Source: Escherichia phage vB_EcoM-Sa45lw
Length of the DNA stretch: 64,000 bases
Strand: one strand, 5' to 3'
Sequence record: MK977694.1
The translations under genes and the position numbers were made by a program. The notes under the pieces are model-generated. The model saw nothing but the letters and a program-made list of their open reading frames with translations, ran no database searches and was not told where the DNA came from. Positions 26,784-31,915 of this stretch are shown one piece after another (positions within the stretch are counted from its first letter, which is position 1; every line of letters starts with the position of its first letter).

Positions 26784-27321
26784 TTACTATTTCCAAAAGT
26801 TTATTATTTTTAAGGTAATTAGCCTTTTCTAGGACTTCAGAAGCATATTTAGAACCTGCTTTAACATTCCATCCCGAATTATAAGAGGATATTGCTTTTC
26901 TTATATCGCCCTTATGTATATTTAACCAATAAGAAAGTTCAATGTACGCCCAGGAAGCTGAATTGGACCGTTTATTCAACATTCTTTTTATTTCAGCATC
27001 GGTCATATTATAACCAAGTTCCTTAACTCTTGCTCGCATAGTAGGCAAATAATTTTGGAACATTCCGTAGGCGTGATGCTTTGGTTTAGATTTTAAATTA
27101 ACTCCGCCAGAGCTTTCTTGCCATAAAATAGCAGCCATTATATGACCTAATCCACTCTTGTGAATGTTTTTGTGTGTTTTATATTTTCCATCCTTAGAAA
27201 ATTGTTCCCCGAATTGATACGCGTAACGCATGTTATCGAGTTGGACATTACTGAAAGTATGCTCGGAGCTATGTGCCATCATTGAAATGGCCAATAGACC
27301 AGCGAGTAGTGCTTTTCTCAT
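26776..27321 (-). CDS. Periplasmic lytic transglycosylase-like (SLT domain) protein with signal peptide
   Basis: Signal peptide MRKALLAGLLAISMMAHS; SLT-like motifs ...QESSGG..., AYGMFQ, SSYNSG. Confidence 0.55.
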   Translation of the reverse strand: MRKALLAGLLAISMMAHSSEHTFSNVQLDNMRYAYQFGEQFSKDGKYKTHKNIHKSGLGHIMAAILWQESSGGVNLKSKPKHHAYGMFQNYLPTMRARVKELGYNMTDAEIKRMLNKRSNSASWAYIELSYWLNIHKGDIRKAISSYNSGWNVKAGSKYASEVLEKANYLKNNKLLEIVND

Positions 27322-27328
27322 GCTTACC

Positions 27329-27790
27329 TCATTGAGTTTTAATTACTGCTTTAGAAGCCTTTCCTGGTAAACGACGACTGTTGATAATTGCCATTCTACA
27401 TTGAAGTGACGGGTCTTTGAACTTCGCATTAGGTTTACAAACCGTAAATCCAAGCCAAAGATTTCCATCTGTAATTTCCAAACGCCCAGGACGATATTCA
27501 ACCCCATCAATAAAATCCTCGTCAATGTCAGGACGCGGAGGCATACTCAGGAATTCATTAACTTCTAAAACATGGTCTTTTATTTTGTGGAATAATTCAA
27601 AAACATATGTCTCATCAATCTCCCGTTGAATTGCACGATCAAGAAGATGTTGAGAATATTTTAGATGAAACGATGAGACTCCTGCTGCTTTTGATGCCTC
27701 ACGAATCTCATTGTTAATTTGACGAAACTCCGACTCAAAATGACGACGAAGCTTATTTCGACGGATAAAAACTTCTGTATTGATAGTCAT
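27329..27790 (-). CDS. regB: RegB sequence-specific endoribonuclease
   Basis: 153 aa as T4 RegB; position upstream of vs/tk and downstream of denV region; own early promoter + SD. Confidence 0.75.
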   Translation of the reverse strand: MTINTEVFIRRNKLRRHFESEFRQINNEIREASKAAGVSSFHLKYSQHLLDRAIQREIDETYVFELFHKIKDHVLEVNEFLSMPPRPDIDEDFIDGVEYRPGRLEITDGNLWLGFTVCKPNAKFKDPSLQCRMAIINSRRLPGKASKAVIKTQ

Positions 27791-27817
27791 GTTGTTCTCC
27801 TCTTAACTGATAGAAAA

Positions 27818-27847
27818 ATTATACCACAGTCAAGAGGAAAAGTAAAC
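27818..27847 (-). promoter_or_regulatory. T4-type early promoter (GTTTAC, 18 bp, TATAAT) for regB
   Basis: Minus strand: actGTTTACttttcctcttgactgtggTATAATttttc; GAGGAG + ATG follow. Confidence 0.65.
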
Positions 27848-27849
27848 AG

Positions 27850-28128
27850 TTATTCTTTAAATCTAATCAATTTATTCATAGACTTTGAAACTTCTGCACG
27901 AACCTCATGTAGATTTTTGAGCTGTTCAAGACGCTGCGTATAGTAAGCAATTTCATCTTCTTCGAGACAGTCCTGTGAATCTTCTTTAAGATAACGCGCA
28001 TAATCCTGGAAAGCTTTACGGACTACTTCCTGGAAGTCATCAAGACTTTGAATTTTCTTAGGAGCGGCAGATACACGACGAGGTGCAGTATAATACTCAT
28101 AACCAAACCCTGCGCTTAATTGAGCCAT
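27850..28128 (-). CDS. Hypothetical protein (92 aa from ATG)
   Basis: Track ORF 27850..28170 begins at GTG; ATG at 28128 overlaps upstream stop (TAATG). Confidence 0.5.
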
Positions 28129-28394
28129 TAGTATTTTTCCTCTGGTTGGAACACTGCGCGACAAGCCCACATACTAGCTTCTTTGAGTTTCGTTTTAGCA
28201 ATAGTTAACTGATCGAGGCTTTCAGCATAATTCTTCGCGAGTTCATCATCTTCACAGCTATCGAATGCTTCCCAGAATTCATCGTATAAAGCATCAAAGA
28301 TAAGTCCTAAACGAACTTCAGCGTCTTTGATAGCATTCACTTTACCGATTTTCTCTTCAGTATGCGGCTTATAACCTTTAATGTCTTCAATCAT
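28128..28394 (-). CDS. Hypothetical acidic protein (88 aa from ATG)
   Basis: ATG at 28394 with GAGGAA 6 nt upstream; track start 28430 is TTG. Confidence 0.5.
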
Positions 28395-28608
28395 ATTTGA
28401 CTTCCTCACCAGTACATAAATCATATTCAACTAAACGAATAGGTTCATGAATGCCATATCCTTGAACAGAAATTTCTGTCGTAGGATAAATTCCATCAAT
28501 ATCACCCATATTCCAGGCTTCATTAAATTGCTGTTCGCCTGAATTACTAAACCACTCGGCGAAAGCATTTAGCACATCTTTAGAACCTTCAATAATTATC
28601 TTTGCCAT
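28387..28608 (-). CDS. Hypothetical protein (73 aa)
   Basis: ORF track; ATG overlapping GrcA-like stop (TAATG). Confidence 0.45.
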   Translation of the reverse strand: MAKIIIEGSKDVLNAFAEWFSNSGEQQFNEAWNMGDIDGIYPTTEISVQGYGIHEPIRLVEYDLCTGEEVKYD

Positions 28609-28970
28609 TACAAACTCTCAGTAAAGGTACGAGCGATAACGTCGCGCTGCTGTTCCGGAGTCAGAGAGTTAAAGCGAACTGCATATCCGGATACACGGAT
28701 GGTCAGCTGCGGATATTTTTCCGGATGCTTAACTGCATCTTCCAGAGTTTCGCGACGCAGAACGTTAACGTTCAGGTGTTGACCACCTTCAATTTTAACT
28801 GTAGGCTGTGGCTCAATTTCAATTTCACGGGCATGCAAACCATAGAAAATTTCTGGGTCTACAAAAGAGTCCTCTTTAAAGGTTTTAGAAACGATAATTC
28901 GTGCTTGAATACCATCTTCAAAATAAATAGTACCTTTATGTGTGCCTTCAAGAATTTGATATGCTTTCAT
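28608..28970 (-). CDS. Autonomous glycyl-radical cofactor (GrcA/YfiD-like)
   Basis: C-terminal ~70 aa ([61 protein letters not shown]) matches remembered E. coli GrcA glycyl-radical domain almost exactly. Confidence 0.8.
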
Positions 28971-28977
28971 ATAAACC

Positions 28978-29307
28978 TCAATTAGAAAATAAATTTATCC
29001 AAGATTGTTCTTTAATTAAAAACGGCTCAGAATCATATGCCATTAAACTTTGGGTAATTAATCCTTTAAAAGGTCCATCAATAAATTCCATGGTAAAATA
29101 TGGAATTTTATTCATTAACTGCGCGTTAGGAGCAGTGCACAAAACTCTGCATCCTTTGAATACGCCTTTTTGTAATTTGTATTGCTTGGGATAAAATTCG
29201 CTCAAAATGTTATTATTTGCCAAAATTTCAAAATGATTCACCAATTTATTTTTAATAGTTTTTGGCGAAAAATAAAGATATTCGAAAAGCTGTGTGTCTG
29301 TCATCAT
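28978..29307 (-). CDS. Hypothetical protein (109 aa)
   Basis: ORF track; ATG start. Confidence 0.5.
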
Positions 29308-29894
29308 TGCATTCCAATCACAAAAAATTGAGGACGAACTGTTTCACCTGTTTCAGCATTATAGCTTCGACAACAGTGTTGTACCGTTTTAATATGGATA
29401 TTGTAAATCTTATCCATATCAGGAGCTTTAATAGGTTCGTCAATTATGTACAAGATACGAGAAAGCGATAACCCACGGAATTTATGACCTTCATTACCGA
29501 TAAAACTACGGACAGAATCAGTAAATAAACGGAATCGAATATCATCATTAGAATAACGCGAAAATTCCTTTTTAATGTTATTTGCAGAAATTTTAGCGTA
29601 AGCTGAAGTATTAGAAAGAACAATAACTGTTCCGCCATCATACAGCCAATTAGCAGCAAAGTTAGTCACAGCAATTGATTTACCGGATTGACGTCCACCA
29701 TCTATACGAAGTGTGCAGTACTGTTTGAGCACATCTTCCATTGGTGGAAGATAATCATTCTTACAAATTTCTTCTACTCTAGCATCAGAATGGTGTGTAA
29801 AAGCATTCATCAGGGATAGATAAGGACCAGTTAAAAATGTTCTCATTTTATTCTCTCTAAGTTTGGGCCATTCCGTGGCGCATGAATTGTCCAT
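29304..29894 (-). CDS. Small P-loop NTPase-like protein (196 aa)
   Basis: Walker A-like GGRQSGKS and Walker B-like RILYIIDEP; start may be internal (ATG 29846). Confidence 0.5.
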   Translation of the reverse strand: MDNSCATEWPKLRENKMRTFLTGPYLSLMNAFTHHSDARVEEICKNDYLPPMEDVLKQYCTLRIDGGRQSGKSIAVTNFAANWLYDGGTVIVLSNTSAYAKISANNIKKEFSRYSNDDIRFRLFTDSVRSFIGNEGHKFRGLSLSRILYIIDEPIKAPDMDKIYNIHIKTVQHCCRSYNAETGETVRPQFFVIGMQ

Positions 29895-29987
29895 TTCTGT
29901 ATTTACCCATTACCGCACTTGGGCTCGACCTTATCACAGGTTGGCGGGAATCCCTCACAGAATCATGAGGTCCAGGTTGTTCCCATA

Positions 29988-30461
29988 TTATTTGAACGAT
30001 TTAACGTACTGAATAGAACCCTTACTATTCACAAAGGCAATTTTACCATTTTTATTATACATGGTAGCAGTACGCTGATAACCATAGGTTTGTTTACCAG
30101 ATTGATAACCAACTAATGCAAAATTATCTTCACCCATTTTATTCTGTTTAGCGCGAATGCGTTCATGACCATGTGCCATAAGAACCTTAGCATCACCAGT
30201 TGCAATGGATCGACGAGTTTTTTCATCTTCAACTGCATTAACAAAGTCGTCAAATGAATCAAATTTAGCATGAGATTTATTATACAATTTTCCATCTACT
30301 GCATAATTATATCCCTGTACATCCATTTCAACTTCTGTACCATCATCCAATACAGCAGTAATTTTTTGACCTTTTTTAAATTTCAAAAGATCAGTAAAAG
30401 ATTCAGCAATAATTTGAGAATTAATAGCTGCTTCAGTGATAAATTCTTGATATGTTTTCAT
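29988..30461 (-). CDS. Internal head protein-like (capsid-targeting N-terminus MKTYQEFITE)
   Basis: N-terminal 10 residues match the T4 internal-protein CTS consensus MKTYQEFIAE (gp21 protease site after E10); 157 aa; lies downstream of denV rather than between denV and e as in T4. Confidence 0.6.
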   Translation of the reverse strand: MKTYQEFITEAAINSQIIAESFTDLLKFKKGQKITAVLDDGTEVEMDVQGYNYAVDGKLYNKSHAKFDSFDDFVNAVEDEKTRRSIATGDAKVLMAHGHERIRAKQNKMGEDNFALVGYQSGKQTYGYQRTATMYNKNGKIAFVNSKGSIQYVKSFK

Positions 30462-30470
30462 GGGTTTCCT

Positions 30471-30887
30471 TTAAATGTAAATATTTTTACCGTAATACTT
30501 ATACCAATGTGGTTTCATTAAAATTTTTTCATCAAGTCGTTGTTGACTCAATTTAATAGCTGATTTGCATGGATTATAATCATTTTTCCATTCTATTGGA
30601 ATATCGCTGATGTCAGGAACTTCAGTATCTTTTATACTGAACCCGCGTTTTAAGCATTCCGTTATAATGTCTAATTGACGCTTTCGCAAAAATTCTAACT
30701 TATCGTAAAAGAACGTAACATGACCAGAACCTAAAATAAACTCGGAAGATATTTTAAAATCTTTAACGCGCTTACCGTTTGCCACATGCTTACGAACTAT
30801 ACCAAAAACACGCGGCAATTCACGGTATTCTGCGATTAAATGTTGATCAGCAAGTTCAGATACTAAAGTCAAATTAATACGAGTCAT
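30471..30887 (-). CDS. denV: Endonuclease V (pyrimidine-dimer DNA glycosylase)
   Basis: 138 aa [38 protein letters not shown]... matches remembered T4 endo V. Confidence 0.9.
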
Positions 30888-30912
30888 TTTATCCCTCCAA
30901 GTAACTGTGAAT

Positions 30913-30942
30913 ATACTATCACAATTCTAGGAGAAAGTAAAC
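30913..30942 (-). promoter_or_regulatory. T4-type early promoter (GTTTAC, 18 bp, TAGTAT) for denV
   Basis: Minus strand: aaagttGTTTACtttctcctagaattgtgaTAGTATattc; GGAGG + ATG follow. Confidence 0.6.
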
Positions 30943-30946
30943 AACT

Positions 30947-31915
<969 letters not shown>

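Follow-up and report, generated by a model that had tools for sequence, protein, structure and literature searches.

Vs.6 of a T4-type coliphage, a probable GrcA-family spare part for oxygen-damaged host PflB, with an E. coli-like 3′ tract

The stretch of DNA analysed here (64,000 nt of the Escherichia phage vB_EcoM-Sa45lw, MK977694.1; hereafter the window) carries an open reading frame (ORF) of 120 codons that is very probably the Tequatrovirus gene vs.6, encoding a phage autonomous glycyl-radical cofactor that repairs O2-damaged host PflB. The deduced protein is identical to T4 Vs.6 (NP_049730; UniProt P13316, GRCA_BPT4) at 119 of 120 residues, the sole substitution being R73 in the window for H73 in T4, with arginine being the state found in E. 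coli GrcA. The exact window protein is already present in UniRef/NCBI under the name 'autonomous glycyl radical cofactor', and the RefSeq name for the phage protein is GrcA. Publications and annotations already cover the gene, the family to which it is assigned, and what its product does biochemically, all of which are hence known; when T4-like genomes were compared earlier, the Gly_radical match of vs.6 was remarked on and a role in nucleotide metabolism was surmised (PMC1524935). On our reading, a virulent coliphage would invest in keeping the oxygen-sensitive PFL of its host alive after host expression has been shut off, and vs.6 would constitute a functional host-derived auxiliary metabolic gene that is recognisable from raw sequence. 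The coordinates of the gene, its parts, and the related glycyl-radical genes are given in Table 1.

Table 1. Features of vs.6 and of the anaerobic ribonucleotide reductase genes, in window coordinates.
Feature	Position (nt)	Strand	Basis or comment
vs.6 (Y06I/grcA) coding sequence	28608..28970	minus	120 codons + TAA; ORF list, T4 identity, synteny
vs.6 5′ part, coding for the N-half	28791..28970	minus	without E. coli DNA match; 33% aa identity to GrcA 28-67
vs.6 E. coli-like 3′ tract, GC 0.50	28608..28792	minus	encodes structured glycyl-radical domain (beta-strand, Gly loop, C-terminal helix)
RVSGY glycyl-radical motif	28683..28697	minus	sequence; aligned to GrcA Gly102 and PflB Gly734
Gly95 codon GGA	28686..28688	minus	read from sequence
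Shine-Dalgarno GAGG	28976..28979	minus	5 nt before vs.6 ATG; overlaps vs.7 TGA stop
vs.6 stop/vs.5 start overlap TAATG	28606..28610	minus	read from sequence
nrdD, anaerobic class III ribonucleotide reductase, 605 aa	8927..10744	minus	Pfam NRDD 1.1e-171, Gly_radical 1.2e-25; glycyl radical G580
nrdG, radical-SAM activase of NrdD, 156 aa	8460..8930	minus	Pfam Fer4_12 1e-48, Radical_SAM 1.1e-07

The ORF put forward in a preliminary description of this DNA is real, running from ATG to TAA on the minus strand with its own Shine-Dalgarno sequence and stop codon, and the peptide quoted there is the C-terminus of its product; no catalytic barrel is encoded. It forms part of a tightly packed string of genes on the minus strand (e, denV, Ip4, vs.8, vs.7, vs.6, vs.5, vs.4, vs.3, regB, and vs.1), and its position between vs.7 and vs.5 is, by synteny, the slot that it occupies in the T4 and RB51 phages. 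Over the surrounding 3.6 kb (27300–30900), the window shares 99.5% identity with the Shigella phage Sf23, 99.3% with the Escherichia phage wV7, and 97.3% with RB51, and it is a segment of a Tequatrovirus (T4-type) genome. Given that a scan of positions 27300–31000 for promoters and terminators found none above the expectation from shuffled sequence (15 versus 12.9 and 2 versus 2.1), no dedicated vs.6 promoter is claimed. A terminator-like hairpin at 28774–28788 was ruled out, as it lies on the wrong strand and inside the vs.6 coding sequence.

We noted several further features of this genome. Two genes downstream of vs.6, the product of vs.4 (28128–28430, minus strand, 100 aa) matches the Pfam Acb2/Tad1 hairpin domain (PF24729, E = 1.2e-19), and we take it to be T4 Vs.4, an Acb2-type cyclic-nucleotide sponge against CBASS. 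A 157-aa ORF between denV and vs.8 (29988–30461, minus strand) corresponds to Ip4, an internal head protein in phages of the RB51/wV7 type. The internal-protein cassette therefore differs from that of T4, in which ipII and ipIII lie between denV and e, with Ip4 present in the window. Elsewhere in the window, nrdD is a single uninterrupted ORF of 605 codons; T4 nrdD (sunY) is split by a group I intron, which the window phage appears to be without.

By every sequence criterion but the strict equivalog bit-score cut-off, Vs.6 is a member of the GrcA family. The only Pfam domain is Gly_radical (residues 61–101, E = 2.8e-18); we set aside as chance a weak match to Dehydratase_LU, whose E value of 0.018 falls short of the cut-off. 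Among the NCBIfam models, the highest-ranking is TIGR04365 GrcA (IPR011140; residues 20–120, E = 3.7e-45, 153.3 bits), whose curated equivalog cut-off of 170 bits is not reached because the N-half of Vs.6 is divergent and seven residues shorter; the C-half alone scores 131.5 bits. The orthologous group of T4 vs.6, phrog_1209, is matched over the full length of the protein (residues 1–120, E = 1.2e-62). The earlier proposal of a GrcA/YfiD-like cofactor encoded by the phage is thus well founded, with matches far beyond chance to Gly_radical (2.8e-18) and to the structure of E. coli GrcA (PDB 6OWR, 8.6e-42). The best matches are to GrcA (TIGR04365, 6OWR), followed by PFL, and not to an unrelated family.

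In the C-terminal half of the protein, which is homologous to beta-strand 10, the Gly loop, and the C-terminal helix of PFL, residues 61–120 of Vs.6 are identical to residues 68–127 of E. coli GrcA (60/60; 6OWR, E = 8.6e-42), and the next match in the PDB is E. coli PFL (E = 5e-26), with residues 58–120 of Vs.6 sharing about 80% identity with residues 697–759 of PflB. An almost exact match over the C-terminal ~70 residues had been proposed in the preliminary description; the match itself stands, at 100%, but its length is 60 residues rather than ~70. The catalytic glycine of the RVSGY motif was checked and is conserved: Gly95 (R92-V-S-G95-Y-A-V) corresponds to GrcA Gly102 and PflB Gly734, and this glycine is invariant in a multiple alignment of 17 phage and bacterial sequences. 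The NMR structure 6OWR covers the C-half that Vs.6 shares with GrcA. The group of papers to which PMC8683613 belongs shows that GrcA residues 61–127 take on the fold of PflB 693–759, with residues 1–60 disordered. The N-half of GrcA is needed for binding to cleaved PFL and for the protein to be activated efficiently, and is dispensable for catalysis.

Upstream of residue 61, the amino acid identity to GrcA falls abruptly to 13/40 (33%; pairwise BLASTP E = 2e-5), in agreement with the divergent N-terminus remarked on earlier, and this low-identity, still homologous region extends over Vs.6 residues 22–60. In the 17-sequence alignment, the N-half and the bacterial GrcAs share Q5, ARxIV(S/A)K, RE(I/V)xxE, and R48, with Q5 and R48 invariant across phage and bacterial GrcAs, while the seven-residue segment NSFWLLD of GrcA is absent from Vs.6. 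The N-terminal 60 residues on their own gave no match against the NCBIfam HMMs. Homology between the two N-halves rests on the pairwise BLASTP and the multiple alignment, which give a weak but significant indication that the Vs.6 N-half is a divergent homolog of the disordered N-half of GrcA.

According to Wagner et al. (2001, BBRC 285:456, Knappe group), as relayed in PMC8683613, E. coli YfiD and T4 Y06I are 'spare part' proteins of roughly 14 kDa, on which the PFL activating enzyme installs a glycyl radical and which form a complex with oxygen-cleaved PFL, whose activity was restored in vitro. The possible rescue of oxygen-damaged host PFL, as first suggested for this ORF, gains support from the 119/120 identity to a T4 protein with published activity. 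With the window allele being one residue off the assayed protein, both radical installation and PFL rescue would be expected, by analogy, to proceed by the same mechanism, and the same mechanism should apply to the window Vs.6 since its structured half is copied exactly from GrcA.

Under this model, O2 would cleave host PflB at Gly734, leading to the loss of its radical-bearing C-terminus. The C-half of Vs.6 would then dock into the damaged PflB, replacing the lost beta-strand, Gly loop, and helix, and host PflA would put a radical on Gly95 of Vs.6 using S-adenosylmethionine. From Gly95, the radical would be handed to Cys419 of PflB, by analogy with G102 of GrcA, and the activity by which PflB turns pyruvate into acetyl-CoA plus formate would be restored. 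As T4-type phages shut off host transcription and gene expression, the host would be unable to replenish PflB or GrcA, and a spare part made by the phage may keep fermentative ATP and acetyl-CoA production running in the micro-oxic gut. An active PFL may likewise maintain a supply of formate as reductant for phage NrdD. Class III ribonucleotide reductases, the T4-type enzyme included, use formate, the product of PFL, as their reductant (PMC4493059), which provides a functional link between vs.6 and nrdD/nrdG. Both genes are indeed found in the same window, as had been stated (Pfam NRDD and Fer4_12/Radical_SAM matches), ~18 kb from vs.6. Upkeep of PFL thus plausibly secures ATP, acetyl-CoA, and formate for the phage anaerobic ribonucleotide reductase. 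The benefit of Vs.6 during infection is what we infer from these relationships; in the literature searched, we found no in vivo phenotype of a vs.6 mutant.

We weighed other roles against the rescue of host PflB. Vs.6 could instead manipulate host glycyl-radical metabolism, either by serving TdcE or by competing with PflB and GrcA for PflA, and so re-route pyruvate. The N-half is strongly diverged from GrcA and conserved among phages (phrog_1209 covers residues 1–120), which leaves room for a phage-specific interaction, and GrcA can, according to the title of a 2022 paper in J. Bacteriol. and to G734A-variant strain data in PMC12338860, complement a full-length but inactive PflB in vivo. Nevertheless, the T4 protein restored PFL activity in vitro in the account given in PMC8683613, nothing points to inhibition, and the extreme purifying selection on the catalytic half fits a faithful substitution better than antagonism; we consider this role improbable.

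The preliminary description had also offered phage NrdD as a rescue target, with Vs.6 acting as a spare glycyl-radical domain for NrdD that is activated by NrdG. NrdD too is cleaved at its glycyl radical by O2, nrdD and nrdG are carried by the same genome, and the vs.6 gene of the Aeromonas phage PX29 overlaps the end of nrdG. However, a BLASTP comparison of Vs.6 with the NrdD of the window gave no significant similarity (best E = 2.6), and the C-terminal architecture of the two proteins is different: the NrdD site (IRRTCGYLGNP, G580) comes after a Cys-rich Zn motif and has a tail of only 25 residues. The ~80% identity of Vs.6 58–120 is, by contrast, to the last 63 residues of PflB (697–759), and the rescue published is that of PFL with PFL-AE, in the account of PMC8683613. 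This part of the earlier proposal is not supported, and we regard NrdD as a very improbable partner.

We retain the reading of Vs.6 as a spare part for oxygen-damaged host PflB, and turn to the DNA that encodes it, which is a mosaic. Codons 1–60 of vs.6 are AT-rich, phage-specific, and without a blastn match to E. coli DNA, while gene positions 179–363 alone match E. coli DNA, with 97.8% nucleotide identity to grcA in 5426/5426 complete genomes. The junction at codon 60/61 is knife-edge in the alignment, the GC content changing from 0.34 upstream to 0.50 downstream (peak of 0.525 at 28640–28759), and codons 61–118 share 98–100% nucleotide identity with E. coli grcA. The exact words shared with E. 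coli grcA reach 106 nt in the window, 137 nt in T4, and up to 152 nt in an IMG/VR allele (L094), and the RB51 tract is the grcA of some E. coli strains at 173/173 nt. Codon 73 occurs as both CGC and CGT in the phage alleles, and the sampled E. coli have both; CGC is found in ER1709, and CGT in strains such as SK1144, which match the RB51 tract over the 173/173 nt. Assembly contamination was rejected as the source of the tract because T4 and many independent genomes carry the same mosaic.

The tract comparison, which took in the window (28608–28792) together with alleles L003, L001, L002, and L092–L099, shows that, of the 80 sampled bacterial grcA genes, that of E. coli is the nearest to the tract, ahead of Citrobacter (0.91) and all the rest. 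Its dS to E. coli is 0.02–0.05 for the Tequatrovirus alleles (0.047 for the window), compared with 0.07 for the grcA of another Escherichia species, 0.42 for that of Citrobacter, and 1.2 for that of Salmonella. The 5′ half is held in common only with other phages, at 73% nucleotide identity to Jiaodavirus and Karamvirus. Between Tequatrovirus and Mosigvirus, the dS is 0.31–0.55 in the 5′ half versus 0.00–0.15 in the tract, and no difference separates RB51 from a Mosig-like allele (L099) across the tract, against 17 nucleotide differences in the 5′ half. Differences specific to the phages cluster at the tract ends, namely at position 1 of the tract region and in the last three codons.

The simplest reading of these sequences is that an old phage grcA homolog was present first and that E. 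coli DNA then took the place of its radical-domain half very recently, the replacement falling, again on the simplest reading, after or during the split of Tequatrovirus and Mosigvirus. Taken together, the comparisons suggest a recent, possibly repeated, replacement by host DNA. We put forward with some doubt the fuller proposal that codons 61–118 in the Tequatrovirus and Mosigvirus phages infecting E. coli have been overwritten recently, and probably repeatedly, by host grcA via homologous recombination in lytic infection; one host capture followed by exchange between phages is an alternative to repeated conversion. If the proposal is true, gene conversion would keep the spare part of the phage nucleotide-identical to that of its host, and vs.6 would present a rare, datable case of ongoing gene conversion from host to virulent phage, confined to one domain of a gene. 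The host-identical 3′ tract may serve as a natural marker, small and clean, by which recombination of virulent phages with the host chromosome can be recognised. A literature search for a host-identical vs.6 3′ tract found no report, with the main 2003 T4 genome review lying outside the search, and one for PFL genes of host origin in T4-like phages gave nothing relevant; we offer the tract as a modest, possibly new, side observation.

Homologs of Vs.6 are widespread. By tblastn, 1,588 phage records contain one, with 80% or more of the protein covered in 1,539 of them. Represented among the records are Tequatro-, Mosig-, Jiaoda-, Karam-, Slopek-, and Krischvirus, along with phages of the T5-like and Aeromonas groups and a jumbo Yersinia phage. 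A host-identical 3′ tract was sought and not found in the Klebsiella, Enterobacter, T5-like, Aeromonas, and jumbo-phage homologs, in which the best nucleotide identity was 0.66–0.91 to a donor panel of 80 bacterial grcA loci that does not hold the grcA of K. pneumoniae. Three IMG/VR T4-like contigs (L105–L107) encode a C-terminal stretch of 60 residues that matches E. coli GrcA at 100%, in DNA that is only ~83% identical to any sampled bacterial grcA. Purifying selection on the radical domain is thus seen to be very strong irrespective of any recent transfer, which indicates that the nucleotide identity seen in the T4-type phages reflects recency and not functional need. That vs.6 is a passenger, i.e., recently captured host DNA without a role for the phage, is scarcely credible despite a 3′ tract that resembles a recent capture in its 98–100% identity to E. 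coli DNA, given an old N-half common to Tevenvirinae genera at 73% nucleotide identity, genes that are intact in ~1,540 full-length copies across several phage families (T5-like and jumbo phages included), a radical-domain dN of ~0 in other lineages, where dS reaches as far as saturation, a good Shine-Dalgarno sequence and translational packing within an operon, and no frameshift or deletion of vs.6 seen in the sampled alleles.

Several of these homologs merit individual mention. In the Jiaodavirus Klebsiella phage Shinkou (L084, 301–663) and in L119, the GC content rises from 0.34 in the 5′ half to 0.57 in the 3′ half. The Jiaodavirus copy has residues of the Klebsiella/Salmonella type (LLDAVEH), with a best match of 88% in the panel, which is without K. 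pneumoniae grcA, and this hints that the Jiaodavirus 3′ half was independently derived from a host. In the Aeromonas phage PX29 (L091, 301–678), the vs.6 homolog overlapping the nrdG end is followed by nrdC and nrdH; the spare-part gene of PX29 thus lies inside the anaerobic nucleotide-reduction cluster, from which it is ~18 kb away in the T4-type coliphages. The T5-like Escherichia phage HildyBeyeler (L090, 301–669) and L135–L161 carry a GrcA homolog of ~52% identity beside tRNA genes. Annotations of the homolog vary among the T5-like siphoviruses (Tequintavirus and relatives), and include 'formate acetyltransferase', '2-ketobutyrate formate-lyase', and 'glycyl radical cofactor'. Among the IMG/VR 'viral' contigs L162–L172, several carry, in place of a small GrcA, the 3′ end of a full-length gene of the pflB type (MNREMLLDAME...TQSM), and these contigs are probably bacterial or prophage-flanking DNA within a viral collection.

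In comparison with known systems, Vs.6 of the window is nearest to T4 Vs.6/Y06I, with which it shares its length, its slot (vs.7-vs.6-vs.5 between denV and regB), and its mosaic DNA, and from which it differs at residue 73 (H73 in T4, not R73) and by a few synonymous changes. E. coli GrcA (YfiD, 6OWR) is likewise a stand-alone protein of ~14 kDa with an identical C-terminal 60 residues, among which lie the radical Gly and the activase recognition site RVSGYAV, and the DNA of the C-part is 98–100% identical; the N-halves, on the other hand, are homologous at 33% identity, and Vs.6 is seven residues shorter. Vs.6 is presumably expressed from the phage operon, and GrcA from the host grcA promoter with its own regulation. 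In PflB (PDB 2PFL/1H16), the C-terminal domain that is lost or displaced after O2 cleavage is ~80% identical to Vs.6 58–120. Unlike PflB, Vs.6 has neither the catalytic barrel nor Cys418/Cys419, and it would act only in complex with damaged PflB. The radical domain is also common to GrcA2 and GrcA3 (NF008341 and NF038360; E = 6.8e-27 and 5.6e-31, respectively), which are ~80 aa proteins without the N-terminal half, whereas Vs.6 keeps a full-length, divergent N-half. Finally, the radical motif of NrdD (IRRTCGYLG) is unlike the RVSGY context of Vs.6 and sits in a shorter C-terminal context.
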